Shown here piece after piece: positions 6,329 to 56,228 of a stretch of DNA of 64,000 nt. The position numbers and the translations under genes were made by a program. Each line of letters begins with the position of its first letter. Position 1 is the first letter of the stretch. The stretch is taken from contig NZ_JBEQCS010000008.1 of the NCBI RefSeq assembly GCF_046054195.1, positions 14,090 to 78,089 of the forward strand, written 5' to 3'. This stretch comes from Celerinatantimonas sp. MCCC 1A17872. GTDB taxonomy: Bacteria; Pseudomonadota; Gammaproteobacteria; Enterobacterales; Celerinatantimonadaceae. Under the pieces are notes generated by a model that was given only the letters and a program-made list of their open reading frames with translations, was not told the DNA's origin and searched no databases.

Positions 6329-6343
6329 GAATAGAAGGAATAT

Positions 6344-34760: not shown

Positions 34761-34895
34761 CTTTTCTGATATGTTTGGCTGCTCAAACGGGCAGCCCTTT
34801 TTTAGTTGGGGCGTTGGTTAAGCCCTAATCGGTGAGTTAGATGAAGGTTGGCAGACGTTGTGATAAATCCATATACACCCAGTTCAATCGCCGCT

Positions 34896-39996: not shown

Positions 39997-40101
39997 GATT
40001 GTCTTGCGCTTTCAAGCTGGTAAAAAAAGTGCAGCGTAAAGGCAAAAACAATAAATCCAAACCTCATAGTCTAATAGTATCGATTGTTTTGGGGAGCAGT
40101 T

Positions 40102-40794: not shown

Positions 40795-41623
40795 AGCCCA
40801 TACGCGAAGGCTTAAAGAGTTGGCAGCGCTGATGCGCCATCATGCGTGTCATCGTCGCCACGGGCCTTATAAAGTTGGAGTCGATTTAGGAACGGCGAAT
40901 ATTGCGCTAGTCGTGGTTGATTACGCCAATCAACCGGTGACAGGCATTAGTTATCCATCAACGGTTGTGAAAGATGGTGTTGTGGTGGATTACCTAAAAG
41001 CGAGCGAAGTCGTATCTATGCTCAAAGCTCAGTTAGAAGAGCGCCTTGGTGAGCCTTTGAAATATGCTGCCACAGCGATTCCTCCGGGAATTTCCTCAGG
41101 TGACACGAAAGTAATTGTTAACGTAGTTGAAGCGGCTGGATTTACGGTTACCAATGTGATGGATGAGCCAGTTGCAGCAGCAGTTGCCTTAAACATCACC
41201 GATGGTGCCGTCGTAGATGTTGGTGGTGGCACAACTGGGATGAGTGTGTTTTGCAATAACCAAGTTATCTTTAGCGCCGATGAGCCAACTGGCGGCACAC
41301 ATATGACATTGGTCGTTGCTGGCGCTTTGAATCTTCAATACGAGCAAGCAGAAGCGTTAAAAATTGCAAAAGAGAATGAAGCGCAAGTCTTTGAGCTGAT
41401 TCGGCCAGTTGTTGAAAAAATGGCGACGTTAGTTTGTGGATGGCTGGGGCAGTATCCAGTTAAAAAATTATGGCTGGTGGGCGGGGCAAGTAGTTTCTCG
41501 CAGTTTGCCGATGTATTTAGTGGTGTGACGAATGTTCCCAGTGTTGTGGCCCCTGAGCCGCTATTAGTAACGCCATTGGGAATTGCTATCAAGGCAAAAG
41601 AGGTGGCATCTGTTCATTTATGA
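40787..41623 (+). CDS. eutJ: EutJ-like actin-fold ATPase/chaperone
   Basis: KVGVDLGTANIALVVVD… and …DVGGGTTGMSV motifs. 8-bp overlap with pduL. Confidence 0.8.
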   Translation: MAKAHTRRLKELAALMRHHACHRRHGPYKVGVDLGTANIALVVVDYANQPVTGISYPSTVVKDGVVVDYLKASEVVSMLKAQLEERLGEPLKYAATAIPPGISSGDTKVIVNVVEAAGFTVTNVMDEPVAAAVALNITDGAVVDVGGGTTGMSVFCNNQVIFSADEPTGGTHMTLVVAGALNLQYEQAEALKIAKENEAQVFELIRPVVEKMATLVCGWLGQYPVKKLWLVGGASSFSQFADVFSGVTNVPSVVAPEPLLVTPLGIAIKAKEVASVHL

Positions 41624-42309
41624 AAAATCCATCGTTTGAGCACAAACTTGATGCAATGATTTTTGCAATCCTTGAGCAAAAACGCTTAAAAGCCAAGTTG
41701 CTGCGAGTGGTTATCACCGGTTCTGATATGCGCTCATTAGAGCGGATCTTTGCCTGTATCGATGCGTTATATCATCGTGGTTACGCCATTGCGATATCGT
41801 TTTCATATTCAGCTTTTAACTCGATGCTCGCCCAAGTTTGTCAGCGTTGGATAGAGGTGAAAAAGCTTAATATCACAACAGATAACTGTGGCCCTCATTT
41901 ACCAAAAGATGACTATTACGGCGTTTTTTTCCCGGCATTGTCGATGAATAGCTTGGCTAAAATAGCTCAGTGTCTGAATGATAATATTGCCTGTGAATGG
42001 GCATTTGATGCGCTTGCATGCCGGCGCCCTGTCTATGTCACACTCAGCGTCGATGAGGACGAAAGTCATTTTTCCAGCACAATGCGCCAATGCCTGAGCG
42101 ATTACGTCAAAGCTCTTAAAGGCCTTGGGGTACACGTGCTCACCCAAGCTTGCCCAGCGGCTCATAACCGCCGACAGCTAATCACTGTTGCCGACGTTCG
42201 TAAGATGCAAAAGCTGACATCTTTGTCTGTCGAGGCTGATGCGCTAATTACCCCAGCGGCACGGGATGAAATCAATCGTTTACAACTTGTTCTGAATAGA
42301 AAAAGTTAG
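41620..42309 (+). CDS. Hypothetical microcompartment-associated protein, possibly PduM-like
   Basis: Occupies the PduM position (after PduL, before the vertex protein). C-terminal …LITPAARDEINRLQLVL resembles PduM …VVTAMARDAANARNIQLI. Confidence 0.4.
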   Translation: MKNPSFEHKLDAMIFAILEQKRLKAKLLRVVITGSDMRSLERIFACIDALYHRGYAIAISFSYSAFNSMLAQVCQRWIEVKKLNITTDNCGPHLPKDDYYGVFFPALSMNSLAKIAQCLNDNIACEWAFDALACRRPVYVTLSVDEDESHFSSTMRQCLSDYVKALKGLGVHVLTQACPAAHNRRQLITVADVRKMQKLTSLSVEADALITPAARDEINRLQLVLNRKS

Positions 42310-42318
42310 GAGGAACAT

Positions 42319-42591
42319 ATGTATCTGGCCAAAGTGACTGGTGCAATTGTATCAACCACCAAGCATGAATCTTTAATTGGAACCAAGTTATTGGTTGTGA
42401 GCCGCATGGATGCGAATCATCAGATAACTGGCTATCCAGAAATTGCTGTTGATTGCGTTGGTGCGGGCAATGGTGAAGTGGTGATCGTTGCTGTGGGTAG
42501 TTCGGCTCGTAAAAGTCGCGAGCAGGTAAACTCAGTGATTGATGCTGCTGTGGTGGGAATTGTTGACTCTCTCGAAGTGAATGATGATTAG
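42319..42591 (+). CDS. eutN: BMC vertex protein (EutN/PduN/CcmL, BMC-P)
   Basis: 90 aa. MYLAKVTGAIVSTTKHESLIGTKLLVV… is typical of BMC-P. Confidence 0.85.
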   Translation: MYLAKVTGAIVSTTKHESLIGTKLLVVSRMDANHQITGYPEIAVDCVGAGNGEVVIVAVGSSARKSREQVNSVIDAAVVGIVDSLEVNDD

Positions 42592-42624
42592 GCGATAAAA
42601 ACTCGATGATTTAAGGCCACTATT

Positions 42625-43143
42625 ATGAGCGTCAATCAAACCCGCGAAAGTCGAAGTCTTGATCATCTCATTGATCAGGCAATTGACCAATACGCTTATG
42701 AGCCAGTGACAACGCTAAGCTTAAACGATGCGATGACACTGGGGCGATTGGCCCACGAACAAGCGCATCAAATAGGTGTTGCAATCGTCTTTAGCATGCT
42801 CGATTCAATGGGCTATCAACGTTACTTTTTCAGCATGGATAATGCACTGCTAGTCAGCCACCAATTGGCGTATCGCAAGGCTTGGAGCGCGGTTGCTTTA
42901 AAAATGCCAACGCATGAGCTAGCAAGCCTTTGTCAACCCGGGCAAAGCTTGTATGGGCTGTTGAATCACCCAGATATCTGTTGTGTTGGGGGCGGGCTAC
43001 CTTGTTGGCATAAAGGACAACTGTTAGGTGCAATTGGCATTAGTGGCGGAAGTGTCGAGCAGGATATGTCGGTTGCCAGCAATACTTTGTTTAAATTTAG
43101 CCAGTCTCGTTATTTACTGACGTCGTCACCATTGGCGGTGTAA
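42625..43143 (+). CDS. DUF336 (GlcG / PduO C-terminal-like) haem-binding family protein
   Basis: …GGGLP…GQLLGAIGISGGSVEQD signature. Confidence 0.7.
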   Translation: MSVNQTRESRSLDHLIDQAIDQYAYEPVTTLSLNDAMTLGRLAHEQAHQIGVAIVFSMLDSMGYQRYFFSMDNALLVSHQLAYRKAWSAVALKMPTHELASLCQPGQSLYGLLNHPDICCVGGGLPCWHKGQLLGAIGISGGSVEQDMSVASNTLFKFSQSRYLLTSSPLAV

Positions 43144-43164
43144 GCCAAATCAGCCGAGGTTGTT

Positions 43165-44373
43165 ATGCCATCATCTGAGCGCGGCATTTTAGTCATTAAT
43201 TGTGGTTCATCATCGCTGAAATTTTCAGTGTTGCCGCAGGATAAGGATACTCCACTTTTTTATGGTATCGCGCAAAAGCTGGGGTTATCCGATGCCGAGA
43301 TCACCTTTCATGATGAGCAAGGACAAACTTGTTGTTACCCACTTAAACGCAGCTCTCACCAATGTGCGTTAGAAACATTGTTTGCCTATATGCGCCAGCA
43401 TTCAATGCTAGGGTCGTTATGTGCGATTGGTCATCGCGTGGCGCATGGCGGGAACCTCTTTAGCCATTCGGTATTGATTAATGATGAAGTGATTGCTCAA
43501 ATCCGAGGGCTTTGTGCGCTTGCTCCGCTGCATAATCCAGCGAATTTAATTGGTATTCGCAGCGCCTTGGAATTATTACCTGATATTCCCCAAGTCGCTG
43601 TATTTGATACCGCTTTTCATCAAACTATCCCCGCCAAAGCATATACTTATGCAATCCCTTTGGAATATCGCGAATTGTATCAGGTGCGCCGATATGGCTT
43701 TCATGGCAGCTCGCATCGCTACATTACCGCAGAAACTATTCATCGGTTGGGGTTAAATCCGGCGCAATGTGGGATTGTGATTGCTCATTTAGGCAATGGC
43801 TCATCGGTTTGTGCGGTAAAAAATGCGCAAAGCGTGGATACCTCGATGGGAATGACGCCGCTCGAAGGCCTAGTCATGGGAACTCGTTGTGGCGACCTAG
43901 ATTGCGGAGTCCTCGCATATTTAGCACGGTGCACTAAACAGTCGATTGAGTCGTTATATGAGTTAATGAACAATCAGTCCGGTTTACTTGGCTTATCTGG
44001 TATATCGAGTGATTTTCGCGCTTTACAAAGCGAAAGACTATCGGGAAACCCCCAAGCAACACTTGCCATCGATGTCATGATCCATCGTCTGGCGCGTCAT
44101 ATTGGGGGGCATATGGCTTCGTTAGAGCATTTGGATGCATTAGTGTTTACCGGTGGAATCGGTGAAAATTCGCCGCTGGTTCGAGAGTTGACCGTTAAAA
44201 GTCTGGCGGTTTTTGGTTTTCGTTTGGATGAGCGGCAAAATAACGCAATGTGCTGCGGTGAAAGCGGCATTATTTCGCAACCTAACACCCCTGTGGTAAT
44301 GGTTATTCCAACCAATGAAGAAAAAATGATAGCCAAAGATGCAGCCGATATTGCACAGGGTATTGCATTGTAA
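43165..44373 (+). CDS. Acetate/propionate kinase (AckA/PduW family)
   Basis: ILVINCGSSSLKF and the phosphate-binding motif FHGSSHRY. Confidence 0.85.
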   Translation: MPSSERGILVINCGSSSLKFSVLPQDKDTPLFYGIAQKLGLSDAEITFHDEQGQTCCYPLKRSSHQCALETLFAYMRQHSMLGSLCAIGHRVAHGGNLFSHSVLINDEVIAQIRGLCALAPLHNPANLIGIRSALELLPDIPQVAVFDTAFHQTIPAKAYTYAIPLEYRELYQVRRYGFHGSSHRYITAETIHRLGLNPAQCGIVIAHLGNGSSVCAVKNAQSVDTSMGMTPLEGLVMGTRCGDLDCGVLAYLARCTKQSIESLYELMNNQSGLLGLSGISSDFRALQSERLSGNPQATLAIDVMIHRLARHIGGHMASLEHLDALVFTGGIGENSPLVRELTVKSLAVFGFRLDERQNNAMCCGESGIISQPNTPVVMVIPTNEEKMIAKDAADIAQGIAL

Positions 44374-44729
44374 TTATTAGCTCTACCAAGGCATTTATGT
44401 GGGTTATCTTATCCATTTCATCGCTATTTATATCTGCTGTTTTTAGTTTTTATCCCCCTCGTTGGCAGCGTCTGCGTTCGCTTGTTTTCTCTTTTGAATA
44501 AACCTGCAATTTATTGCATCTATCTAAGCGATGACCGCAAAAGAATCCCCCTAGGGGGCAAAACATTTTTCGGTAATCTTCATATGATGAAGATGCTAGG
44601 GAGGGTTGATCTTTGGTAGTTGCAAAACTAATCACAAAAGGTCCACTCCTCTAGTTAAAACGCATCAAGGTGAGCCGGGAGCGCTTAAGCCTTTTTGCTT
44701 TAATTATCATCGAAATTGCCGAGGTAGAT

Positions 44730-45011
44730 ATGCAACAAGAAGCATTAGGTATGGTTGAAACAAAAGGGTTGGTTTCTGCCATTGAAGCCGCCGATACCAT
44801 GGTTAAGTCTGCCAATGTGACACTGGTTGGTTACGAAAAAATTGGTTCAGGATTAGTCACTGTTATGGTCCGCGGTGATGTCGGAGCGGTAAAAGCTGCC
44901 ACCGATGCAGGATCCTCTGCTGCGGCGAAAGTTGGCGAATTGGTTTCTGTCCACGTCATTCCTCGTCCACATGTCGAAGTCGAAAAAATTCTACCCAAAA
45001 CGCTTGAGTAA
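44730..45011 (+). CDS. BMC-H shell protein (PduA/EutM-like)
   Basis: [35 protein letters not shown] 6 nt upstream of the ATG. Confidence 0.85.
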
Positions 45012-45026
45012 TCCATTTAGAGGGGC

Positions 45027-45818
45027 GTGACAATGAAAGAGAATCTTGTTGAGCAGATTATTTCTGAGGTAATGAATAATCAAAGTCATGTCGGTGAGCC
45101 AAGCCAAACTACGAAAAGCGGCCCATGTGGGTTAACTGAGTTTGTGGGTAGTTCTGAACTTGGTCATACCATCGGTTTAGTGATAGCAAGCGTCGATAGC
45201 CAGCTGCACGAAGTGATGAATATCGATACTAAATATCGCTCCATCGGTATTTTGGGCGCTCGCACAGGTGCCGGCCCACACATTTTTGCAGCCGATGAAG
45301 CGGTTAAAGCCACGAACAGTGAAATTGTCGCCATTGAGCTGTGCCGAGACACTGAAGGTGGTGGCGGCCATGGCTCTTTAATTATCTTTGGCGCTGAAGA
45401 CGTATCAGATGTGCGCCGCGCGGTGGAAGTTGCTCTGTCCGAGCTCAAACGCACTATGGGCGATGTTTATGGCTCACCCGCTGGCCATTTGGAATTTCAA
45501 TACACAGCTCGGGCCAGCTATGCGCTTAATAAAGCGTTTGGTGCGCCAATTGGCCGCTCATTCGGTATGACTTGTGCCGCTCCTGCCGCTATTGGGGTTG
45601 TGATCGCAGATACTGCTGCCAAAGCTGCGGTAATTGAGCCTGTTGCCTATTCGAGCCCGCAAAAGGGAACTTGTTTTAGCAACGAAGCCATATTTACTTT
45701 TGCGGGGGATTCTGGCGCCGTTCGCCAGGCCATTGTAGCGGCTCGAGAAGTTGGGTTGCAGTTACTCTCAACGATGGACTCAGCGCCAATTAAATCAACG
45801 ACAACTCCATATATTTAA
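45027..45818 (+). CDS. pduB: Tandem-BMC-domain shell protein (PduB-like, BMC-T)
   Basis: 263 aa with two permuted BMC domains and a GGGG loop, PduB-like. Confidence 0.75.
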   Translation: MTMKENLVEQIISEVMNNQSHVGEPSQTTKSGPCGLTEFVGSSELGHTIGLVIASVDSQLHEVMNIDTKYRSIGILGARTGAGPHIFAADEAVKATNSEIVAIELCRDTEGGGGHGSLIIFGAEDVSDVRRAVEVALSELKRTMGDVYGSPAGHLEFQYTARASYALNKAFGAPIGRSFGMTCAAPAAIGVVIADTAAKAAVIEPVAYSSPQKGTCFSNEAIFTFAGDSGAVRQAIVAAREVGLQLLSTMDSAPIKSTTTPYI

Positions 45819-45855
45819 GTTCATTGGTGCGCGTTTAAGTGGCGTGTAGTAAGGA

Positions 45856-47376
45856 ATGGCTAGTATGAATGATACTGAAATTACTCAGGCGGTCGCGCAT
45901 GTTTTGAGTAAATATACCCAAACAAACCCGCCTGAAGAGCATACCTGTCAGAGCGAAAATTCAAGCTTTGAGTTGGATAGAATCGTTGCTAAGGCTTTGG
46001 CCGAGAAGTTTTCAACCGCTGCCGTTGAGCCGCTATCTGCTCCAACGATTGACTCTCATGCAGGTGTCTTTGCAGCGATGGATGAAGCAATTGGTGCAGC
46101 TTTACAGGCTCAGATCCAATATCGGCATTGTTCAATGCGTGATAGAGAAAGCTTTATCAGTGGGATCCGCAGCATTTTTATTCAGGAGTCAATTCTTGAA
46201 AAAATTTCGCGGATGACAGTCGATGAAACAGGCATGGGCAATTACGATGATAAATTGATTAAAAATCGAATTGCTGCCACTAAAACCCCTGGTACCGAAG
46301 ATCTCACAACGTTTGCGTTATCTGGTGATGATGGCCTTTCATTGATGGAATATTCGGCTTATGGGGTGATTGGCTCGATTACCCCAACCACCAATCCAAC
46401 CGAAACCATTATCAACAATACTATTGGCATGTTGGCTGCTGGAAATACCGTGGTATTTAGCCCACATCCGCGCTCAACCAAAGTATCGCTCTATACCATC
46501 GATTTAATTAACCGCAAACTTGCTGAGCTTGGCGCACCTAACAACTTAGTTGTCACAGTTGCCAAGCCATCGATTGAGAATACCAATGCGTTAATGAATG
46601 ACCCGCGGGTCAACATGCTGGTTGCAACGGGTGGGCCTTCGATAGTGCGCGCCATTATGTCGACCGGGAAAAAGGCAATTGGTGCTGGAGCCGGGAACCC
46701 GCCTGTGGTCGTGGATGAAACGGCCAATGTGGAAAAAGCCGCTCAAGACATCATCAACGGCTGTGCCTTTGATAATAATCTGCCGTGCATCGCCGAAAAA
46801 GAGCTGATTGTCGTTAATGAAGTGGCTGACTATTTGATTCATTGCATGAAAAAATGCGGCGGTTATTTATTGTGCGATCCCAAATTAGCTCATCAGCTGC
46901 AGAATCTGGTCATCAATGCCAAAGGCACTGGCCCTAAAACTGAGTTTGTCGGTAAGAACGCCCGTTATCTTTTGGAACAGTTGGGAATTGACGCGCCAGC
47001 TGACATAAAAGTGATTCTCATTGAAACAGAACGAGACGACCCATTTGTTGTGAATGAGTTGATGATGCCGATTTTGCCAATTGTGCGCGTGGGCAACGTC
47101 GATGAAGCGATTGATTTGGCAGTAAAAGTTGAGCATGGCAACCGTCATACCGCGATGATGCATTCGATGAATGTAGAAAAATTAACCAAAATGGCCCGTT
47201 TAATCCAGACCACTATTTTTGTCAAAAATGGGCCATCGTATGCCGGAATTGGTGTGGGTGGCGAAGGCCATACCACCTTTACGATTGCAGGCCCTACCGG
47301 TGAAGGGCTGACTTCGGCCCGCTCGTTTGCCCGGCATCGGCGCTGCGTGATGGTCGAAGCGTTGAATGTTCGCTAG
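45856..47376 (+). CDS. CoA-acylating aldehyde dehydrogenase (EutE/PduP-like)
   Basis: 506 aa. ALDH fold with a catalytic Cys region (…NNLPCIAEKE…) and an N-terminal ~40-aa extension that may act as an encapsulation peptide. Confidence 0.85.
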   Translation: MASMNDTEITQAVAHVLSKYTQTNPPEEHTCQSENSSFELDRIVAKALAEKFSTAAVEPLSAPTIDSHAGVFAAMDEAIGAALQAQIQYRHCSMRDRESFISGIRSIFIQESILEKISRMTVDETGMGNYDDKLIKNRIAATKTPGTEDLTTFALSGDDGLSLMEYSAYGVIGSITPTTNPTETIINNTIGMLAAGNTVVFSPHPRSTKVSLYTIDLINRKLAELGAPNNLVVTVAKPSIENTNALMNDPRVNMLVATGGPSIVRAIMSTGKKAIGAGAGNPPVVVDETANVEKAAQDIINGCAFDNNLPCIAEKELIVVNEVADYLIHCMKKCGGYLLCDPKLAHQLQNLVINAKGTGPKTEFVGKNARYLLEQLGIDAPADIKVILIETERDDPFVVNELMMPILPIVRVGNVDEAIDLAVKVEHGNRHTAMMHSMNVEKLTKMARLIQTTIFVKNGPSYAGIGVGGEGHTTFTIAGPTGEGLTSARSFARHRRCVMVEALNVR

Positions 47377-47399
47377 TTCGTTTTAAGGTGGAGCTGAGC

Positions 47400-47699
47400 A
47401 TGAAAGTTCGAATTATCAATGCGCCAGGGGCCGATGTTTTAGCCATGCTAAAACGGCGAATTTCACCCGAGCTAAGACAAAGCATCGATTTGGTCTGCAC
47501 CGATGCAATTGGGTTAGTGCTATTGCCGATTCCTGATCTGTATTTTTATGCAGATAAAGTCAGCAAAAGGGCCAATGTCACAGTCACTGAGATCTGTGGA
47601 ACTTGTCCTCAGCATGTCACCACCCTTGGCATTTTTGGCGAGCTTTCCGCAGTAAGAGACGCGGTTCAAGTGATAGAGGAGGACTCAGAGAGTTTCTGA
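47400..47699 (+). CDS. Permuted BMC-domain shell protein (EutS/PduU-like)
   Basis: ~100 aa. The pattern …IDLVCTDAIGLVLL…ANVTVTEI…GIFGELSAV fits a permuted BMC fold. Confidence 0.55.
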   Translation: MKVRIINAPGADVLAMLKRRISPELRQSIDLVCTDAIGLVLLPIPDLYFYADKVSKRANVTVTEICGTCPQHVTTLGIFGELSAVRDAVQVIEEDSESF

Positions 47700-47707
47700 G
47701 TGAACCG

Positions 47708-48316
47708 ATGAATAAGCTCCTCATCTTAGCCGGTGATTTTTCAGAAGATTATGAAGTAATGGTGCCTTTTCAGGCGCTAAAAATGCTCGGATTTGATGTT
47801 GATGTGGTATGCCCGGGAAAGTTAAGTGGTGAATGTATAAAAACAGCGATTCACGATTTTGAAGGGGATCAGACTTACAGCGAAAAACCTGGCCATTTGT
47901 TTGTATTAAATGCCTCGTTTCGCGATCTCAACCTTGCTGAATATAGCGGTTTATATATCACCGGTGGGCGTTCATCAGAGTATTTAAGACTGGATGCAAG
48001 GGTGTTGCATGTTGTGGATTATGCCATTCACTTTGCGCTTCCCATGGCAGCGATTTGCCATGGAGTCCAGATCTTGGTTGCAGCTAATGTGCTTAAAGGA
48101 AGAAAAGTAACAGGGTATCCGAGTGTGAAACCTGAAGTCGAACTTGCGGGTGGGCAATGGGTTAGCGCTTGTGATGATGGGGCAGTAACCGATGGCAATT
48201 TGGTGACGGCTCCCACTTGGAAAGCGCATCCGGAACTGTTACGTGCGTTTATTCATTTGCTTGGGATTCGCTTCATGCAGAAGGCATCAGGCTCTGTCGC
48301 AAGGCTAAATAATTAA
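47708..48316 (+). CDS. DJ-1/PfpI-family protein (class I glutamine amidotransferase-like)
   Basis: Nucleophile elbow AAICHGVQIL and the overall DJ-1 fold pattern. 9 nt after the EutS-like gene. Confidence 0.7.
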   Translation: MNKLLILAGDFSEDYEVMVPFQALKMLGFDVDVVCPGKLSGECIKTAIHDFEGDQTYSEKPGHLFVLNASFRDLNLAEYSGLYITGGRSSEYLRLDARVLHVVDYAIHFALPMAAICHGVQILVAANVLKGRKVTGYPSVKPEVELAGGQWVSACDDGAVTDGNLVTAPTWKAHPELLRAFIHLLGIRFMQKASGSVARLNN

Positions 48317-48362
48317 GGTGTGATCTCGCTGTCTCGCCTTATCATATTTCGGGAGTAATTCT

Positions 48363-50912
48363 ATGTTAGAGAAAGGTTTTTCTAATCCGACCGATCGTGT
48401 TGTAAGACTCAAAACCATGATTCTGCAAGCTAAACCTTATGTAGAATCCGAACGAGCCGTGCTAGCAACCGAGGCCCATAAAGAGAATCAACATTTGCCT
48501 GCTGTTATGCGCCGGGCAAAAATGGTTGAAAAAATATTCAATGAATTGCCGGTGACTATTCGCCCTGATGAGCTGATTGTTGGGTCGGTAACCAAGCATC
48601 CGCGTTCGACTGAAATCTGCCCTGAGTTTTCATTCGATTGGGTAGAAAAAGAGTTCGAGACGATGGCTTCGCGAATGGCTGACCCATTTATTATTGAAAA
48701 ACAAACCGCTCAGCAATTACATGATGCATTTTTGTATTGGCCGGGTAAAACCACCAGTGAGCTGGCTTCGTCATATATGTCCCAGTCAACGCATGACAGT
48801 ATGGATAATGGCGTCTTTACGGTGGGTAACTACTATTTTGGCGGTGTTGGGCATGTTTGTGTCGATTATGGCAAAATTCTGAAAATTGGTTTTCAAGGAA
48901 TTATCGACGAAGTCACAAGTGCGCTGGAAAATTTAGACAGAACTAAACCTGATTACATTAAAAAAGAACAGTTCTACCATGCAGTATTGATTAGCTATCA
49001 AGCTGCGATTAATTATGCGCATCGTTATGCCGACGAAGCGGCGCGACTTGCTCAGCAAGAGCATAATCCGCAGCGAAAACAAGAACTCCAGCAGATCTCC
49101 AAAAACTGTCGCAGAGTCCCTGAATTTGGCGCAACTACCTTCTGGGAAGCCTGCCAAACATTCTGGTTTTTGCAAAGTATGTTGCAAATCGAATCCAGTG
49201 GCCATTCCATTTCACCGGGACGTTTTGACCAGTACATGTATCCATATTTAGCGGGCGATCATGCAATATCTGATGAGTTTGCCCAAGAGCTGGTGGATTG
49301 CTGCTGGATAAAACTCAACGATATCAATAAAACGCGTGATGAGGTCTCAGCTCAAGCATTTGCCGGTTACGCAGTGTTTCAAAATTTATGTGTTGGTGGC
49401 CAAAATGAACAAGGTTTAGATGCAACCAACCGTTTGAGTTATATGTGTATGGAAGCCTGCGCTCACGTTAGTTTGCCGCAGCCGTCATTTTCTATTCGAG
49501 TTTGGCAAGGCACGCCAGATGAATTTTTGTTCCGAGCTTCAGAAGTGGTTCGCTTAGGGCTCGGTGTGCCAGCGATGTATAACGATGAGGTGATTATTCC
49601 AGCGCTGCAAAACCGTGGTGTGTCACTTAAAGATGCTCGAAATTATTGCATTATTGGCTGCGTTGAACCGCAATGCCCGAATAAAACAGAAGGTTGGCAC
49701 GATGCAGCATTCTTTAATGTGGCAAAAGTGCTCGAAATTACCCTGCACAATGGCCGGGTTGGCAATAAACAGCTAGGGCCAGTGACGGGTGAAATGACCC
49801 AATGGCATAGTATCGAAGACTTTTATAGCGCATTTGAAAAACAGATGGCGCATTTTGTCCATAACTTGGTTGAAGCGTGTAATAGCGTCGATATGGCACA
49901 TGCCGAACGCTGTCCTCTGCCATTTTTATCCGCCATGGTTGATGATTGCATTGGTCGAGGAAAATCTTTGCAAGAGGGCGGTGCTATCTATAACTTCACG
50001 GGCCCGCAAGCTTTCGGGATTGCCGACAGTGGCGACTCTGTTTACGCAATGCAAAAACACGTGTTCGATGAAGGAAAAATCTCGCTTGAAGAGCTAAAAG
50101 GCGCATTGGATGCAAACTTTGGCCATGGGGTCGGTGAGAAAGTTGCAAGTAATACATCAAACTCTTATGCCGAACAAGATGTCTATGCCGTGGTTAAACG
50201 AATTATCGATCAAAATAGTTCGTTATCTCCGGCGGCAATTAAAGACGAGGTCTATCGTCAGTTAAATACAGTTTCTAACTCTGCGGTTGTGAGCACTGGC
50301 AATCTGTCTCGCTATGAAGAGCTACGCCATCTTTTGGAAAATACCCCGTGTTTTGGCAACGATATTGATGATGTTGACTACGTTGCTCGTCGGTGTGCTC
50401 TGGTTTATTGCAAAGAAGTTGAAAAATATACAAATCCTCGTGGCGGCCAGTTCCAGGCCGGTATTTATCCGGTGTCGGCTAATGTGCTCTTTGGTAAAGA
50501 TGTTGCCGCTTTACCTGATGGACGATTGGCAAAAGAGCCGCTCGCCGATGGGGTTTCACCTCGTCAGGGTAAAGATACCCAAGGGCCAACCGCTGCTGCT
50601 AACTCAGTGGCGAAACTTGATCACTTTATCGCATCAAATGGCACGCTATATAACCAGAAGTTTTTGCCATCAGCCTTAAAAGGTGAAAATGGTATTCGTA
50701 ACTTTAGTGGTTTGGTTCGCAGTTACTTTGATAAAAAAGGGATGCATGTGCAATTTAATGTGGTCGACAGAGACACCCTTATTGAGGCACAAAAACATCC
50801 TCAGGAGCATCAGGATTTAGTGGTTCGAGTGGCGGGGTATAGTGCGCAATTTATTGTACTGGCTAAAGAAGTTCAGGACGATATTATCAGCCGAACTGAG
50901 CAGCATTTTTAA
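48363..50912 (+). CDS. Glycyl radical enzyme of the PFL-like family. The dehydratase/lyase subclass could be 1,2-propanediol dehydratase or choline TMA-lyase; undetermined.
   Basis: 849 aa. Glycyl-radical motif VRVAGYSAQF near the C-terminus and catalytic Cys-x-Glu (IIGCVEP). Confidence 0.9.
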   Translation: MLEKGFSNPTDRVVRLKTMILQAKPYVESERAVLATEAHKENQHLPAVMRRAKMVEKIFNELPVTIRPDELIVGSVTKHPRSTEICPEFSFDWVEKEFETMASRMADPFIIEKQTAQQLHDAFLYWPGKTTSELASSYMSQSTHDSMDNGVFTVGNYYFGGVGHVCVDYGKILKIGFQGIIDEVTSALENLDRTKPDYIKKEQFYHAVLISYQAAINYAHRYADEAARLAQQEHNPQRKQELQQISKNCRRVPEFGATTFWEACQTFWFLQSMLQIESSGHSISPGRFDQYMYPYLAGDHAISDEFAQELVDCCWIKLNDINKTRDEVSAQAFAGYAVFQNLCVGGQNEQGLDATNRLSYMCMEACAHVSLPQPSFSIRVWQGTPDEFLFRASEVVRLGLGVPAMYNDEVIIPALQNRGVSLKDARNYCIIGCVEPQCPNKTEGWHDAAFFNVAKVLEITLHNGRVGNKQLGPVTGEMTQWHSIEDFYSAFEKQMAHFVHNLVEACNSVDMAHAERCPLPFLSAMVDDCIGRGKSLQEGGAIYNFTGPQAFGIADSGDSVYAMQKHVFDEGKISLEELKGALDANFGHGVGEKVASNTSNSYAEQDVYAVVKRIIDQNSSLSPAAIKDEVYRQLNTVSNSAVVSTGNLSRYEELRHLLENTPCFGNDIDDVDYVARRCALVYCKEVEKYTNPRGGQFQAGIYPVSANVLFGKDVAALPDGRLAKEPLADGVSPRQGKDTQGPTAAANSVAKLDHFIASNGTLYNQKFLPSALKGENGIRNFSGLVRSYFDKKGMHVQFNVVDRDTLIEAQKHPQEHQDLVVRVAGYSAQFIVLAKEVQDDIISRTEQHF

Positions 50913-50975
50913 ATCGCATCGAACAGGCCGTTCGATGAGCGGCCTGCAGTCTTTTCAAGATTAAAGAGCAGTGCT

Positions 50976-51896
50976 ATGAATAACGACGTTGATTATAATG
51001 CGCAGGGTGTTCTTTTTAATATTCAGCGATATTCGCTCCATGATGGTCCGGGGATCCGCACGATTCCTTTTTTTAAAGGTTGTCCACTTTCATGTAAATG
51101 GTGCAGCAATCCAGAGTCTCAGAATCCACATCCAGAAATCGTTTATAACCAGATAAGTTGTGTGCATTGTGGTAAATGTCTCGCAGCTTGTCCTGAGCAT
51201 GCAATTGCTCTGAGTAATCCATTTTTCATTGACCGGGATAAATGTATTAACTGTGGTCATTGTGCGGATGTTTGCCCAACTGGGGCGCTTGAGATCAAAG
51301 GTAAAACGATGTCGGTTGAGCAGGTGTTGCTTGAGCTTAAAAAAGAGGAAAATCTGTTTCGACGATCTGGTGGTGGTGTGACACTCTCCGGGGGTGAACC
51401 GCTCCAGCAACCGGTATTTGCTCGAGAACTACTCAAAGGGTGTAAAGAAAAAGGCTGGCATACGGCGATGGAAACCACTGGATGTGCGCCCAAAGAGGTG
51501 ATTGAAGATGTGTTTCCATGGGTTGATTTGGCATTAACTGATATTAAAGCGCTGAATCCCAAGATTCATAGAGAAAATACCGGTGTGGACAACACGCTGA
51601 TTTTAGAGAATTTGATGCGTATTTCGTTTATCACGAAAGTAGTGGTGCGGATCCCGGTGATTCCTGGTGTAAACGATAATCCAGATGAAATTCGCGCAAT
51701 TGGGGAATTTGCCAGATTACTCTCCAATGTGGATACCATTCATCTATTGCCTTATCACACCTATGGCCAAAATAAATATTCTCTGCTGGGGCGAATTTAT
51801 CCCATGGGAGATACACCTGTTATGGCCGATGAACAAGTTGAGCCTTTACGTGACGTGATAGAATCACTTGGCTTTCAGTGTCACATTGGTGGCTAG
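50976..51896 (+). CDS. Glycyl-radical-enzyme activating enzyme (radical SAM)
   Basis: CPLSCKWC radical-SAM cluster motif plus two ferredoxin-like Cx2Cx2Cx3C motifs. Confidence 0.9.
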   Translation: MNNDVDYNAQGVLFNIQRYSLHDGPGIRTIPFFKGCPLSCKWCSNPESQNPHPEIVYNQISCVHCGKCLAACPEHAIALSNPFFIDRDKCINCGHCADVCPTGALEIKGKTMSVEQVLLELKKEENLFRRSGGGVTLSGGEPLQQPVFARELLKGCKEKGWHTAMETTGCAPKEVIEDVFPWVDLALTDIKALNPKIHRENTGVDNTLILENLMRISFITKVVVRIPVIPGVNDNPDEIRAIGEFARLLSNVDTIHLLPYHTYGQNKYSLLGRIYPMGDTPVMADEQVEPLRDVIESLGFQCHIGG

Positions 51897-51921
51897 CTTT
51901 TGTAACCCTTAGCTGTTTGAT

Positions 51922-51956
51922 AAGCCATACATTGATTTGTGTGGCTTTATTTTTAT
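51922..51956. terminator. Hairpin terminator between the convergent activase and BMC-H genes
   Basis: AAGCCATACA-ttgattt-TGTGTGGCTT followed by TATTTTTAT. Confidence 0.5.
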
Positions 51957-51980
51957 CTGCTTAGTCGCAATGGTTCATTG

Positions 51981-52547
51981 TTATTGGCCACTTTTGTCGG
52001 AGTCTGCTTTGGGAGCTGCTTTTTTAGTCGTTTTTCGTGGGGCTCGTCGGGTTCTCGTTGTCGCAGTTTTACTGGTAGGTTTGGTGGCTGGTTTAACAGG
52101 CGTTGATTCTGGCCGTTGTATTAAAGCTGTCGTTTGGTGAGGGGCATTAAGCGTGCTCTGCGTTGGTTTTTTATCTGATGTCGCAACTTGTTTTAAGCTT
52201 TTTGATGCTTCAGTGTCATTGGGCGCAGGTGTTTTTTGGGTAGTCGGTGCAGGTGGCGCTTTAACCGTTTCGGCAGTATTTATCAGAGCATCTAGTCCGT
52301 TGGCCGTGCGTGCAATCACGCGATGCGCCCAGACTTTTCCCATTCGGTTGGCGGCAGCTACGCCAGAGGCAACCGCGGCGTTAATTGCGCCGACATCACC
52401 TTCGAGTTTTACTGTGACCAAGCCATTGCCTTTGGTTAGCTCATAGCCGATTAGTGTGACATTGGCTGATTTTACAGCAGCATCAGCAGCCTCTATCGCG
52501 GCGGTTAAGCCAACGGTTTCGATTAAACCTAAACTATGGTTAGACAT
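51981..52547 (-). CDS. BMC-H shell protein with a ~100-aa Lys/Thr/Pro-rich disordered C-terminal tail
   Basis: The N-terminal 90 aa form a canonical BMC domain (LGLIETVGLTAAIEAADAAVKSANV). The tail is low-complexity (…KPTQSTLNAPHQTT…TRRAPRKTTKKAAPK…). AGGAGA RBS. Confidence 0.8.
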   Translation of the reverse strand: MSNHSLGLIETVGLTAAIEAADAAVKSANVTLIGYELTKGNGLVTVKLEGDVGAINAAVASGVAAANRMGKVWAHRVIARTANGLDALINTAETVKAPPAPTTQKTPAPNDTEASKSLKQVATSDKKPTQSTLNAPHQTTALIQRPESTPVKPATKPTSKTATTRTRRAPRKTTKKAAPKADSDKSGQ

Positions 52548-52576
52548 ACTGTTCTCCTAATCGAATTTTCATGATG

Positions 52577-53743
52577 TTATGCCGCGCAGTTTGCTCGATG
52601 AGCGTCTTCTCGTAATTGCTCCGCTTTATCTATTTTTTCCCAGGGGAAGATATTGCGACCAAAATGGCCGTAGCAAGCTGTTTTTCGATAACGCGGAGTG
52701 AGTAAATCCAAGTGTTGGATAATTTGATAAACACTTAGCTCAAAATGTTCTTGGATTAAGCCGAGTATTTTTTCTTTGGCAATGGTTTCGCTACCAAATG
52801 TTTGAATATCTATAGAAATTGGGGCAGGGACCCCAATGGCCCAAGCCAGCTGAATTTCACATTGTGATGCAAGCCCTGCGGCGACAATATTTTTAGCGAT
52901 ATAGCGGGCGACATACGCGCCAGAGCGGTCCACTTTGGATGGGTCTTTACCTGAAAAAGCGCCACCTCCGTGGTGAGCAGCACCACCATAGGTATCAACA
53001 ATAATTTTTCTGCCTGTTAGTCCACAATCGGCGGCGGGGCCCCCGATGACAAATGGTCCGGCTGGATTAACGAGCAGTTGTGTATCATGTTTTAGCCATG
53101 CGTTTGGCAATACTGGTTTAATAATCTCTTCAATCACCGCTTCTTGTAACTGTTTTTGGCTGATATCGATGTGGTGCTGAGTGGATAGCACGACTGTTTG
53201 AGCTTGTATTACGTGGCGCTGGTTAAATCGCAAACTCACCTGAGACTTAGCATCAGGCAATAGAAAATCTAGCGTATGACTTTTACGAACGAAGGCATGT
53301 CGCTGCATTAATCGATGAGCAAACAGCAGTGCCGCAGGCATATATTCGGGCGTTTCATCGCAGGCATATCCATAGGTGATGCCTTGATCGCCAGCCCCTT
53401 GTTCTTGATTATCTTTGGCTCGAATAGCATCGCTGATATTCAATGACTGTTGGCCAAGTAAGTTAATCAGCCGGCAATGTTTGGCATCGAATCCTTTGTC
53501 GGCACTGTCATAACCTATCTCTTCGATGGTGCGATGGACAACTTGCTCAATATCAAATGTGGCCGATGAGCTAATTTCACCGGCTAAAACGATAGCATCA
53601 GATTTTAGAAGGCATTCACAGGCAACTTTTGCGCTTGGATCGCGAAGCAAAAAGCCATCTAGAATGGCATCACTGATTTGATCTGCCATTTTATCTGGAT
53701 GTCCTTCACCGACTGATTCTGATGTGAACAGATGACTATCCAT
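52577..53743 (-). CDS. metK: S-adenosylmethionine synthetase, divergent paralog
   Basis: MetK motifs LFTSESVGEGHPDK, GAGDQG and …GGGAFSGKDPSKVDRS. Only ~50% identical to E. coli MetK by eye. Confidence 0.85.
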   Translation of the reverse strand: MDSHLFTSESVGEGHPDKMADQISDAILDGFLLRDPSAKVACECLLKSDAIVLAGEISSSATFDIEQVVHRTIEEIGYDSADKGFDAKHCRLINLLGQQSLNISDAIRAKDNQEQGAGDQGITYGYACDETPEYMPAALLFAHRLMQRHAFVRKSHTLDFLLPDAKSQVSLRFNQRHVIQAQTVVLSTQHHIDISQKQLQEAVIEEIIKPVLPNAWLKHDTQLLVNPAGPFVIGGPAADCGLTGRKIIVDTYGGAAHHGGGAFSGKDPSKVDRSGAYVARYIAKNIVAAGLASQCEIQLAWAIGVPAPISIDIQTFGSETIAKEKILGLIQEHFELSVYQIIQHLDLLTPRYRKTACYGHFGRNIFPWEKIDKAEQLREDAHRANCAA

Positions 53744-53895: not shown

Positions 53896-54948
53896 TCAAA
53901 GTGTATCCACTTGCATACGCCGATACTCGGATGGCGCTTCGCCTGTTTCTTTTTTAAAGATACGACAAAAATAATTCGAGTCTTGCCATGATAACTCCAG
54001 CGCAATGGCGTTGATTTTTAATTCACTAAAGATAAGCAGTGAGCGAGCAATTGCTATTTTTCGCCCTGTGACATAATTAGAAAAACCGACACCGGTATGT
54101 TTCTTAAAGGCTCGACTGAGATAACAGGAGCTAACATACGATTTTTCGGCAATGCTATCTAATGTGACGTTAGTGAGAATATCATGCTCAATGTGAAATT
54201 TCGCGCGGCGTAAAAAATCCATATTATTACTCATGTTTTTAAAGGCGTGAGTAAATAATTTTTGAGATATTTTCATGAGTTGAAAAATTAACTGAGAATA
54301 GATGAGCTTATTTAAACTACTTTGGTGTACCTTTTGAGAAAGCATATTTAAGCTGTCTAATTCAACCTGATAGTTATCATCGGCTGATTCTAAATAAAGG
54401 TGAATAGTATCTAATAGCGTTAAAATAGCGCATTTAGCGGTTTGCAGCTCTTGATGAGAATCTAAGAATGCCTGATTGATATGGTTAAATATGAAGTCAT
54501 GCCAGAGCGGATAATCGCAGCTTTCAAGCATTTTGTTTAAGTCTTTTTTCAGCGTGCGAGTTGCGGCTATATCGTTATCATTGCAGCCGAGATTTTTTTT
54601 GATTGTTTCGACTAATGTTGTTTTTTTGACCGGTTTAAGCAGATAGTCCTCTACTTTAAGATTGATCATGGCGCGCAGCAGATCGAAGTCGTCATTCGCG
54701 GTGGTCACGATAACTTTGGTATCTCGGTTTTTAGCTTTGAGGTATTCAATCACCTCTTTACCATTGGGTAACGGGATATTGATATCAACAAACATCATGT
54801 CGATCTGTGTTAGTTTATCAATCAGATCAATTGCTTTTCGGCCTGTTGATGCTTCATGAAGAACCGCATTATCCACACATTCTGAAATGATCCGATGCAA
54901 AGATTCAAGTTCAATAGGCTCATCTTCAACAACAATAATATTGTACAT
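53896..54948 (-). CDS. Response regulator with CheY receiver and AraC-type HTH (YesN-like)
   Basis: Receiver (…MMFVDINIPLPNGKEV…) and a C-terminal AraC HTH (…SYVSSCYLSRAFKKHTGV…). Confidence 0.8.
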   Translation of the reverse strand: MYNIIVVEDEPIELESLHRIISECVDNAVLHEASTGRKAIDLIDKLTQIDMMFVDINIPLPNGKEVIEYLKAKNRDTKVIVTTANDDFDLLRAMINLKVEDYLLKPVKKTTLVETIKKNLGCNDNDIAATRTLKKDLNKMLESCDYPLWHDFIFNHINQAFLDSHQELQTAKCAILTLLDTIHLYLESADDNYQVELDSLNMLSQKVHQSSLNKLIYSQLIFQLMKISQKLFTHAFKNMSNNMDFLRRAKFHIEHDILTNVTLDSIAEKSYVSSCYLSRAFKKHTGVGFSNYVTGRKIAIARSLLIFSELKINAIALELSWQDSNYFCRIFKKETGEAPSEYRRMQVDTL

Positions 54949-54980: not shown

Positions 54981-56228
54981 TTATTGTTTGTACTGGATTG
55001 GAAATGTCAGTGTAATAGTCGTGCCACCCATTGGTTTAAATGGGCTAGCAATTTCCAATTTTGATTGCTCTCCAAATAAAAGTTGTAAACGGTTAATGAT
55101 ATTATTAATGCCAATCCCTCCTTTTTGGCGGTTTTGGTTCCCGGAAAGAATGTGTTCAATATCGTCAGGTGATATGCCATTGCCATTATCTGATAGGGTA
55201 ATAATGACATTTTCACCATCATCTTTAGCATAGATATCTAATTGGCTTTTTGTTTCTCTTGGTTCGACAACATAATTAAAGAAATTTTCTACTAAAGGCT
55301 GCATAATTAAAAATGGGCAGATAATTTCTAGATATTTTGGGGCAATGTCACAGGTGTAATCAAATCTATCTCCCATTCTTACTTTTTGGATAGACATATA
55401 ATTTTGCACATATTTTACTTCGTGGCCTAAAGTAATTAAGCCGCGGCTATTTTTACGCAATAAATAACGCATCATATCTGAAAATTCATGCACCATGGTT
55501 TCGGTGCGTTGGGCATCTTCAAGATAAGCCAAGCGGCCAATCGTATTGAGGACATTAAATAAAAAATGAGGATTCACCTGATACGACAATGCTTTAAATT
55601 CAGCCTCATGAAGGGAGCGTTCGATTTCCATGCGTTTACGCAGTTCATCGGTTAATTCAAGCTCTTTTTGGTGGAGTTCACGTTGAATTGTATTGGTGTA
55701 TGCTTGCTCAACCAGATAAGAAACTAGATTAAACAGTGCATAAGAGATAGCCGAAAAGCGCTCATAAGGCATGGTTTGAATCGTCGAATCTTGAGATACA
55801 TTGAGTTGCAACTCATCGCGCAGATGGTTTTGCTCAAGAATATACTCAATAGCCTGCTCGTTGTCTTTCTCAACGTGGACCTGGCCTGAGATAAATGCGC
55901 CCAGATAGTGGCCATTAATCATAATCGGTACGGCACATTCGATGAATCCGCAATCACAGCGATAGACAACCGGTTTTTGTGCTTTCATCGCGGCCCTTCC
56001 GCCAGCATCATCGTTGTCGTAACAAATTTTGGCAAGTTCAGGGTTATTGCGAAAGTGAATGCATCTAGCGCAAAAGCCACTGGGGTGGGTTACCGGTACG
56101 CCATTCTCATCAACAATCACAAGCGCAACCATCATGGACTTACTGAAGTTATCTTGTAAGGTTTGCAGGCGTGCGACATCGATATATTCAGTAAGTTTAT
56201 AATGAGAAGCCATGATGGATACCTTCAA
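54981..56228 (-). CDS. Cytoplasmic sensor histidine kinase with an N-terminal PocR-like domain (YesM/LytS-type)
   Basis: No TM segment. N-terminal Cys-rich PocR-like region. [13 protein letters not shown]-box and a HATPase_c domain. Confidence 0.75.

Follow-up and report, generated by a model that had tools for sequence, protein, structure and literature searches.

The gene at positions 51,981–52,547 (minus strand) of the window, a stretch of 64,000 nucleotides from Celerinatantimonas sp. MCCC 1A17872, is with a probability of about 0.95 the Celerinatantimonas ortholog of GrpS, a BMC-H protein of the PduK-like clade belonging to the Grp (glycyl-radical 1,2-propanediol) microcompartment, of which GrpS is probably a minor hexamer. 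According to the list of open reading frames, Pfam and the homologs, the grpS-like product has 188 aa and consists of a BMC-H domain followed by a long C-terminal tail. The initial annotation took such a tail to be rare on a hexameric shell protein. This view could not be maintained: long unstructured C-terminal tails define the PduK-like BMC-H clade and are present, at a length of at least 30 aa, in 130 of the 143 nearest 50%-identity cluster representatives. The basic composition, also regarded as unusual, is indeed uncommon (net-basic tails were found in 1 of 111 members of the GrpS family and in about 12 of 123 representatives of the wider clade), but a long tail as such is the rule in this clade and, apart from the charge, the gene is an unremarkable ortholog within a locus of known type.

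Several independent comparisons support the assignment to GrpS. The annotated protein that is 100% identical is that of Celerinatantimonas sp. MCCC 1A17872 itself, and the best homologs of the 188-aa protein are of the GrpS type. The top matches are tailed BMC-H proteins of Vibrio and Enterobacterales, E. coli GrpS among them, and a neighbour-joining tree placed the window protein inside the GrpS group. GrpS of E. coli CFT073 (c4548, ‘propanediol utilization system shell hexameric protein GrpS’ in RefSeq) has 181 aa as compared with 188 aa and occupies the same final position in its cassette. The two proteins are 46% identical over their full length and 67% identical in the BMC domain; the BLASTP alignment covers residues 1–180 of the window protein, with the tails collinear. 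Both tails are predicted by AlphaFold2 to be disordered, and their distal parts are homologous and carry a basic tip. However, the E. coli tail, with a pI of 5.8 as against 10.5 for the window tail, is acidic and has an IPVVN-like (FPVVN) and an S-C-M-D motif, whereas the window tail has neither, contains no Cys and extends 12 residues further past its Lys/Arg cluster. The loci differ as well, since the window cassette is inverted, convergent with the main operon, and has no grpO permease, unlike the E. coli grp locus. Neither the window protein nor E. coli GrpS was matched by a GrpS-specific NCBIfam model. Annotated grpS genes are present in 539 of 5426 complete E. coli genomes.

The main grp operon (positions 38,869–51,896, plus strand), recognized by Pfam, NCBIfam and the E. 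coli RefSeq annotation, is collinear gene for gene with E. coli grpA–grpN. Its shell genes comprise an EutN/CcmL gene (the BMC-P vertex type) at 42,319, a BMC-H gene at 44,670, a PduB-like gene at 45,027 and a BMC gene at 47,388, and the glycyl radical enzyme and its activase are encoded at 48,363–51,896. The 3′ end of the operon converges on grpS, from which it is separated by 85 bp; this spacer contains a terminator-like hairpin followed by a run of T after the activating-enzyme gene (51,922–51,947, plus strand, from a terminator scan), although the predicted RNA fold of the spacer is weak (z = −1.9). The initial annotation described the gene as lying apart from the main operon and next to metK. 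The position is correct, but it is not an oddity of this genome, as it corresponds to the conserved grpPQRS cassette. On the minus strand, grpS is preceded by a grpR-like methionine adenosyltransferase gene, a metK paralog (52,577–53,743; Pfam S-AdoMet_synt N/M/C, TIGR01034 metK) that bears the name grpR in E. coli RefSeq, and the first two cassette genes are, from Pfam, those of a grpP-like PocR histidine kinase (54,981–56,228) and a grpQ-like AraC-type response regulator (53,896–54,948). The grpP–grpQ order is kept in E. coli, in two Vibrio genomes and in contig L005. The complete grpP(HK)–grpQ(RR)–grpR(metK)–grpS cassette, with grpS last, was found in contexts L001–L006, and the metK–grpS pair also in L007, which is truncated by the end of its contig. 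The metK stop lies just 29 nt ahead of the grpS start, on one and the same strand, and the intervening spacer has no predicted terminator-like site; the two genes are probably co-transcribed.

The BMC domain together with a short C-terminal helix occupies residues 1–92 (52,272–52,547, minus strand), as delimited by Pfam, PDB alignments and AlphaFold2, which bears out the canonical domain of about 90 aa described initially. It is a single, non-permuted PF00936 domain (residues 5–80, E = 2.5e-24, 85.5 bits against a cutoff of 24.5) with a pI of 6.7, and residues 4–94 are collinear with the solved BMC-H chains of PduA, HO BMC-H and a GRM2 shell protein. Judging from its sequence, the domain keeps the residues that would let hexamers tile into shell facets: the triad is K26/N29/R80, with K26 and R80 invariant and N29 conserved in at least 90% of 53 homologs. 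R80 corresponds to R79 of PduA, with an offset of one residue past the pore loop, which reads LTKGNGL. The role of K26, N29 and R79 in inter-hexamer tiling is known from mutagenesis of PduA. The PRPH motif is replaced by ARTA, and the AlphaFold2 helix spans residues 85–89.

The remaining residues, 93–188 (51,984–52,271, minus strand), form the tail, which was defined by composition, a coding-frame test, the charge profile and AlphaFold2. It starts at the junction motif of the clade, ETV(K), aligned as NTAETVK, and its 96 residues include 19 T, 14 K, 13 A, 13 P, 8 S and 5 R. Of the tail residues, 7% are aliphatic or aromatic (FWYLIMV) and 66% are disorder-promoting. The pI is 10.5 and the net charge +12 over the 96 residues, or +13 over the 94-residue stretch that was scored against the family. 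In the AlphaFold2 model built from a 53-sequence alignment, residues 94–188 lack secondary structure and have a pLDDT near 50; the solved structures aligned from the PDB cover the BMC domain and none of them includes a tail. The tail is thus in frame, low in complexity, strongly basic and predicted to be disordered, as the initial annotation had proposed.

The distal polycationic segment PVKPATKPTSKTATTRTRRAPRKTTKKAAPK (residues 150–180; 52,008–52,100, minus strand), identified from the charge profile and BLASTP, lies within a 32-residue stretch (149–180) that has 11 K/R and no D/E, and its counterpart in the BLASTP alignment is the distal part of the E. coli GrpS tail, PVKPSIENTKPTK...AAKKGSRSSGKK. 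Inside it, the Lys/Arg cluster TRTRRAPRKTTKK (residues 164–176; 52,020–52,058, minus strand) is, in the consensus alignment, the counterpart of the basic tail tip of the family and matches the family consensus KKxxRxxxKKxR. The string RRAPRKTTKK, initially placed at the end of the protein, is present within TRTRRAPRKTTKK but is not terminal, as the 12 residues AAPKADSDKSGQ follow the cluster. Taken by itself, the cluster is unexceptional for a tail of this composition (2005 of 20 000 composition-preserving shuffles reached the same, p ~0.1), so its meaning rests on its conserved position across the family.

The isolated tails of the window protein and of E. coli GrpS had no Pfam match at E values up to 10. 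The tail-only homology search yielded nine word candidates, none of them significant, and is a weak negative because the self-match was lost too, presumably through composition filtering. A scan of genome contigs with three tail-derived peptide patterns detected no locus with a matching tail and no close ortholog of the window tail among species representatives. The same scan was flooded by the generic pattern EAADAAVK, which is common to all BMC-H proteins. The tail has no tandem or histone-like repeats, the only repeat in the gene being a 12-nt unit in 1.9 copies.

At the level of architecture, by contrast with its weakly conserved sequence, the tail is well represented. The search for homologous tails in other loci suggested at the outset found it conserved as a feature, for example in GrpS orthologs, and more than 100 homologs have tails of comparable length. 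In the GrpS family the mean tail length is 82 aa (sd 16), while the sequence is not conserved. A cluster of at least five K/R in 12 residues occurs in 95% of 111 homologs and falls within the last 25 aa in 99%. Among representatives sharing at most 50% identity, the last 20 aa contain on average 6.0 K/R as against 2.8 expected, with enrichment in 115 of 123. A typical GrpS tail is acidic with a basic tip; the mean net charge is −4.3 and lineages range from −23 to +13, the window tail ranking first of 111 as the most basic. The mid-tail motifs IPV[VI]N and S-C are present in 78% of the 111 members and absent from the window tail. Since the Vibrio relatives, too, either lack these motifs or have degenerate versions of them, they are not universal to the GrpS family. 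AlphaFold2 modelling of E. coli GrpS, inspected for docking of the IPVVN motif on the BMC domain, gave no structure, with a pLDDT of about 57 around the motif.

The ETVG junction is common to GrpS, PduK-type and basic-tailed BMC-H proteins and absent from PduA and GrpH, and one basic-tailed relative is encoded where PduK would be expected in a B12 PDU locus. From these sequence features, GrpS, PduK-type and other tailed hexamers appear to be one clade that shares a plan consisting of the BMC domain, the ETVG junction, a long disordered spacer and a basic tip. The conserved part of the plan is the tip, the charge of the spacer being free to invert.

Published examples of tailed BMC-H proteins are CmcE, EutK and PduK (PMC12058022), and BMC-H extensions of up to 200 aa have been described (PMC8217296). 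PduK resembles the window protein in its canonical BMC domain, its S-x-E-T-V-G junction, its long, largely unstructured C-terminal extension with a basic end, and in being the one tailed hexamer of its locus. It differs in its genomic slot and partner genes and in its C-terminal motif CNLCxDPxCPRxKGE, thought to bind an Fe-S centre. Membership of PduK was ruled out, as the window tail has no Cys; the earlier statement that a PduK-type Fe-S motif is lacking was therefore right. The tetracysteine motif was readily found in about 35 other matches of the same homolog search. CmcE (GRM2) and EutK (Eut), the other tailed BMC-H proteins of enteric metabolosomes, are grouped with PduK as BMC-H proteins with flexible C-terminal extensions of 40–70 residues; by themselves they assemble no ordered arrays, and they associate with canonical BMC-H (PMC12058022). 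The extension of CmcE is shorter, at 30–40 aa (PMC6971018), and that of EutK ends in a folded helix-turn-helix nucleic-acid-binding domain, whereas the window tail has no detectable domain or fold. EutK was rejected for lack of this domain; the NCBIfam EutK model scored 62.9 bits on the window protein against a cutoff of 218.

A further comparison can be made with PhaM, PhaF and AlgP, granule-surface proteins whose basic, histone-like C-terminal tails anchor the granules to the nucleoid (PMC13052382, PMC3556143). Their plan is analogous, with an organelle-binding N-terminal module and a Lys/Ala/Pro-rich, basic, disordered C-terminus whose non-specific binding to DNA keeps the granules spaced out over the nucleoid (PMC13052382, PMC3556143). 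They are not homologous to the window protein, as the N-terminal module is different and the window tail has no database match, so the analogy is one of working only. The KPAA, AAKP and PAKKA-type repeats, a hallmark of PhaF and AlgP, are absent from the window tail, which is rich in T, K, A and P but non-repetitive.

As for the function of the tail, we tentatively favour, at somewhat less than even odds, a role as an electrostatic tether, in which an outward-facing tail would bind a polyanion through its basic tip and disperse the microcompartments. The C-termini of BMC-H proteins lie on the concave, cytosol-facing side, so that up to six flexible tails of about 95 residues could project outward from each hexamer. 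The basic tip would then hold on to a polyanion of the cytoplasm by its charge, nucleoid DNA being the most plausible one; microcompartments would stay scattered instead of aggregating at the poles, and their inheritance would be helped. In the genome studied here the usually acidic spacer has turned neutral to basic, making the whole distal third polycationic, which would strengthen or broaden polyanion binding and remove any interaction of the tip with its own spacer possible in acidic versions. That the tail of the window protein faces outward, which polyanion it would bind and that it would serve in positioning are all inferred, in a model that combines two precedents, the phenotype of the PduK deletion and the granule tethering by PhaM, PhaF and AlgP. 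Loss of PduK leaves well-formed Pdu microcompartments stuck at the poles, and its flexible C-terminal extension, located on the outward concave face, has been proposed to control positioning (PMC9132943). An outward tail that affects positioning or clustering would agree with these published data (PMC9132943).

Several observations weigh against a tether. No resemblance to a histone-like DNA-binding domain could be detected in the window tail, repeats of the KPAA/PAKKA type are missing from it, and its K/R cluster does not stand out from composition-preserving shuffles. Since most family members have a net-acidic tail, DNA binding would be disfavoured in them anywhere but at the tip, and the terminal K/R residues of PduK-type proteins lie in or near the Cys motif, where they may serve a different purpose. 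In E. coli, the single deletions of shell genes that abolished 1,2-propanediol catabolism in the study of Lundin et al. (2020) were reportedly those of grpE, grpH and grpI, not of grpS. If deletion of grpS indeed leaves this catabolism intact, any role of GrpS would be accessory.

A broader version of the tether, which we consider a speculative one with roughly one chance in four, extends it to the whole PduK-like clade: the basic tip would be a general positioning handle that binds the nucleoid or other polyanions non-specifically and provides for spacing and inheritance of metabolosomes by passive tethering, without a system of the ParA/McdAB type. Carboxysomes are positioned by the McdAB system. 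For Pdu, Eut and GRM organelles, to our knowledge, the sole lead is the tailed minor shell protein PduK, which prevents polar aggregation. A plan shared by the clade would predict in a simple and testable way what happens when tail tips are mutated or tails are exchanged, for which the charge-inverted Celerinatantimonas tail is a ready natural variant. If the prediction holds, this protein, with its polycationic, histone-H1-like distal tail, would be the extreme case found in nature and would lend itself well to a test.

Two other explanations appear unlikely, to a similar degree. The tailed hexamer could mix with canonical ones, possibly within hetero-hexamers, and its bulky C-terminus, next to the inter-hexamer contacts, could bias facet curvature and shell size and stop runaway sheets or tubes, sequence-specific partners being irrelevant. 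Such a modulation of assembly is consistent with the conserved length and unconserved sequence of GrpS tails, with the shift of recombinant shells to large particles caused by CmcE, a C-terminally elongated GRM2 BMC-H (PMC6971018), and with the behaviour of three tailed BMC-H proteins of K. pneumoniae, which form no ordered sheets or tubes alone and co-purify with canonical BMC-H (PMC12058022). It leaves unexplained the retention, in 95% of members, of a K/R cluster at the far tip, some 70–100 residues distant from the inter-hexamer contacts, and the microcompartments of the PduK deletion mutant are well formed and altered in location only (PMC9132943). Alternatively, the tails could act as an entropic bristle or charged brush and coat the microcompartments with a hydrated polymer layer that prevents adhesion among them and to other structures of the cell, with no dedicated partner and a sign of charge that is free to drift. 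The extreme low complexity of the tail, the absence of predicted structure and the wide drift of composition and charge between lineages with retained length are as expected for a brush, and polar aggregation in the absence of PduK would fit a loss of repulsion (PMC9132943). However, with a pure brush no position should be conserved, contrary to what is seen for the basic tip, for the ETVG junction and, among enterics, for the IPVVN and S-C motifs; moreover, a polycationic brush in a nucleic-acid-rich cytoplasm would bind rather than repel.

Recruitment of a client is a good deal less probable. The tail would dock a soluble factor on the shell exterior, most obviously the co-encoded SAM synthetase GrpR, in which no encapsulation peptide is present, so that SAM made beside the pores would feed the radical-SAM activating enzyme. 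The adjacency of metK and grpS on the same strand, 17–54 nt apart in all six contexts examined, speaks for such a link, as does the translated C-terminus of GrpR, which presumably ends at about the same position as that of housekeeping MetK, with no obvious extension. There is no co-variation, however: although in the window tail the IPVVN and S-C motifs are gone and the charge is inverted, GrpR is still 73% identical to that of a relative, and PduK-like tails with basic tips also occur in loci devoid of metK.

Finally, an origin of the tail by read-through or frameshift of an ordinary 90-aa BMC-H gene into non-coding or unrelated sequence, a possibility raised in the initial annotation and one that could be entertained since frameshifts commonly leave low-complexity extensions and four database homologs (P0018, P0070, P0236 and P0193) look frameshifted, with Arg-rich junk tails, is effectively refuted by the codon usage, by the stops in the other frames and by the collinearity of the tail with that of E. 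coli GrpS, including PVKP...TKPT...KK, as well as by the equivalent tails with a conserved tip in more than 100 homologs. The tail is part of one intact open reading frame of 188 aa that starts with ATG, preceded at a distance of 5 nt by a Shine–Dalgarno sequence, GGAGA (52,553–52,557, minus strand, read directly from the sequence), and stops at 51,981–51,983. With the base composition of the window, 96 codons free of stops have a probability of about 0.002. The codon-usage score is positive in the annotated frame only (+0.29, against −0.06 and −0.53 in the other two), and both alternative frames contain many stop codons.

The feature at window positions 51981–52547 (−) is one ORF of 188 codons with an ATG start, and a Shine–Dalgarno sequence, GGAGA, can be read five bases 5′ of this ATG. 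The product is a BMC-H protein, in which the BMC domain is detected once by Pfam (PF00936, residues 5–80, E = 2.5e-24) and which is collinear with solved BMC-H chains (HO BMC-H, the GRM2 shell protein and PduA) over residues 4–94, where the alignment ends. K26, N29 and R80, the hexamer tiling triad described for PduA, are all present; across the family, K26 and R80 do not vary, and N29 is conserved in at least 90 per cent of proteins. As this triad is retained, the protein should, judging from its sequence, be able to take its place in a shell facet.

The tail (residues 93–188) is rich in T (19), K (14), A (13), P (13), S (8), Q (6) and R (5), counts zero Cys and only 7 per cent aliphatic and aromatic residues, and has a pI of 10.5 versus 6.7 for the BMC domain. 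AlphaFold2, supplied with a 53-sequence alignment, gave a pLDDT of ~50 from residue 94 onward and predicted no secondary structure. The ORF, the composition, the pI and this prediction together bear out the proposal of the initial annotation that the BMC domain is followed by a basic, low-complexity, disordered tail. The RRAPRKTTKK sequence described as its end does occur, inside TRTRRAPRKTTKK (residues 164–176), but 12 further residues follow and it is not terminal. An artefactual origin of the tail by frameshift or read-through is effectively excluded, because 96 sense codons without a stop are improbable by chance (P ~0.002 at the base composition of the window) and a codon-usage log-odds score trained on neighbouring genes is positive in the annotated frame only (+0.29, against −0.06 and −0.53); many stop codons also interrupt both alternative frames.

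A protein identical to the window protein is part of the annotation of Celerinatantimonas sp. MCCC 1A17872. The window protein shares 46 per cent identity with E. coli GrpS over the full length, and the tails align too (PVKPA-TKPTSK…APRKTTKK in the window, PVKPSIENTKPTK…AAKKGSRSSGKK in E. coli). Read 5′ to 3′, the main grp operon (38869–51896, +; Pfam, NCBIfam) encodes an Fe-alcohol dehydrogenase, PduL phosphotransacylase, an EutJ-like ATPase, a flavoprotein, an EutN/CcmL vertex protein, an HbpS-like protein, an acetate/propionate kinase, a BMC-H, a PduB-like BMC-T, an aldehyde dehydrogenase, a second small BMC protein, a DJ-1/PfpI protein, a glycyl-radical enzyme and its radical-SAM activase. 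Each of these genes has its counterpart, in the same order, in the grp locus of E. coli CFT073 type (grpA through grpN in RefSeq). Convergent with the operon, across an 85-bp spacer with a terminator-like hairpin (51922–51947), is a four-gene cassette (−) for a PocR histidine kinase, an AraC-type response regulator, a metK paralog and the tailed BMC-H, the order being that of grpP, grpQ, grpR and grpS in the RefSeq annotation of E. coli. Synteny, best homologs and tail collinearity thus identify the window gene as the ortholog of grpS.

The intact cassette is also found in E. coli (loci L001, L002, L004), Vibrio salinus (L003), contig L005 and Vibrio sp. FJH11 (L006). In L007, a truncated contig, metK again lies upstream of the tailed gene and is 73 per cent identical to the window paralog, and grpR-grpS occurs in 539 of 5426 complete E. 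coli genomes. The position beside metK and outside the main operon had been correctly noted, but it is a conserved arrangement and no peculiarity of this genome. The joint between operon and cassette (window 51897–51980) is structurally plastic between genomes: it holds the grpO permease and a group II intron reverse transcriptase in E. coli (L001/L004 13389–17538), an integrase and a PhD/ParE toxin-antitoxin pair in V. salinus (L003 10516–12288), and in the window just the convergent spacer, with the permease gene absent. In Vibrio sp. FJH11 (L006 1–4381) the cassette is upstream and divergent, adjoining a MIP channel.

Two ORFs of the operon are probably called too far upstream. The GrpH-like BMC-H (44670–45011, +) most likely starts at an internal ATG, giving a protein of 93 aa, 49 per cent identical to the tailed one, and the DJ-1/PfpI (GrpL-like) ORF (47603–48316, +), when begun at TTG 47603, shares 97 nt with the BMC gene before it, whereas GrpL of E. 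coli has 191 aa.

Tails of this kind on hexamer shell proteins had been considered rare, a premise that does not hold for long tails as such. Among the 143 best new representatives of 5448 HMMER matches, clustered at 50 per cent identity (P0121–P0263), 130 continue for at least 30 residues past the BMC domain, and the tail averages 82 aa in 111 close homologs. This agrees with reports of BMC-H extensions that reach up to 200 residues and group together on the tree (PMC8217296), of a single BMC-H with a long flexible tail in every enteric metabolosome (CmcE, EutK or PduK; PMC12058022), and of a PduK homolog in GRM4 loci (PMC6325248). A BMC-domain alignment and NJ tree covered the GrpS family, ~35 proteins of PduK type, identified by their CNLCxDPxCPRxKGE motif, and a number of basic-tailed proteins, one of which takes the place of PduK in a B12-dependent PDU locus. 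All three share the junction motif G[IL][DE]x[LMI][IV]xSx[ED]TVG; an S-x-E-T-V-G junction follows the BMC domain in all ~55 tailed representatives aligned and is not present in canonical PduA or the window's own GrpH. The window protein groups with PduK and EutK in this tailed, ETVG-junction clade, but is neither of them, lacking the Cys motif of the former and the HTH domain of the latter. The class of tailed shell proteins and the GrpS gene name were both known beforehand; we add the identification of this gene as grpS, the junction and basic-tip plan across the clade, and the charge-inverted polycationic tail of this ortholog. The shared plan of domain, junction, spacer and basic tip was not found described in the literature we consulted.

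Recurrent features of the 111 GrpS-family tails are the junction motif, IPV[VI]N in mid-tail (78 per cent), S-C (78 per cent) and a terminal cluster of at least 5 K/R in 12 residues (95 per cent; inside the last 25 residues in 99 per cent). In 123 representative tails (at most 50 per cent identity), the last 20 residues average 6.0 K/R versus 2.8 expected from shuffles; 115 ends are enriched, 79 of them individually at p ≤ 0.05. The spacer is typically acidic, the net charge of the tail averaging −4.3 (sd 3.7), or −10 without the tip. The window tail keeps the junction (as ETVK) and the K/R cluster, and lacks IPVVN and S-C, which are not universal in the family. Its net charge of +13 is the highest of the 111, the spacer alone contributing +6; local charge rises to +7 per 15 residues near residues 160–177, and the distal third has 11 K/R and 0 D/E in 32 residues. 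Since net-basic tails recur in ~12 of the 123 representatives, such charge inversion is uncommon, though not unique. Compared with composition-preserving shuffles of the tail itself, the K/R cluster does not reach significance (p ~0.1); its significance derives from its conserved position across the family.

In enterobacterial GrpS tails (P0004–P0120), IPV[VI]N[LIV][DE] is followed ~8 residues on by S-C-[ML]-D, with its single conserved Cys, in variable acidic sequence. Both resemble short linear interaction motifs and are missing from the window protein and its Vibrio relatives. The AlphaFold2 model of E. coli GrpS also has an unstructured tail, with pLDDT slightly raised near the IPVVN-like motif.

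In other shells, the termini of BMC-H proteins sit on the concave face, which is turned towards the cytosol; by analogy, we infer the same for the window protein. The concave face and C-terminus of PduK face the cytosol (PMC9132943), and Pdu microcompartments without PduK are well formed yet confined to the poles (PMC9132943; summarised also in PMC13052382), its flexible C-terminal extension having been proposed to touch other cellular elements and control positioning (PMC9132943). PhaM, PhaF and AlgP, which resemble the window protein by analogy only, attach PHB or polyphosphate granules to the nucleoid via basic histone-like C-termini, and their loss leaves granules aggregated or fused (PMC13052382, PMC3556143). 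Combining the PduK phenotype, the conservation of the tip and this analogy, we tentatively favour, with a probability of about 35–40 per cent, a reading in which the disordered spacer would hold the basic tip ~10 nm off the shell and the tip would tether the microcompartment to a polyanion, for which DNA is the most plausible candidate, and thereby disperse the organelles; in this genome the whole distal third would join in. Alternatively, the tail could act in shell size or assembly, a role reported for CmcE (PMC6971018). It might also form an entropic or charged brush without a partner, or recruit the co-encoded SAM synthetase GrpR. The charge-inverted variant would serve as a useful reagent for finding out what the tails of this clade do.

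Elsewhere in the window, tRNA-Cys(GCA) (31186–31257, +) lies between rtcR (29271–30875, −) and 31424–35453 (+), in the divergent intergenic region of an Rtc RNA-repair locus (RtcR, then an SPFH/Band7 protein, RtcB, RlaP nucleotidyltransferase and an RNase T-like exonuclease); a tRNA gene directly 5′ of an rtcB operon may not be there by mere chance. A 341-aa ORF (36773–37798, −) that lies close upstream of the grp locus gives no match to Pfam at E ≤ 0.001. Nine small ORFs (89–171 aa) run on the same strand at 2719–6775 (+), with Pfam matches mostly absent or weak (SUKH/SMI1-like, two SnoaL-like, DUF2314-like), an organization that recalls an array of immunity-protein or orphan genes.
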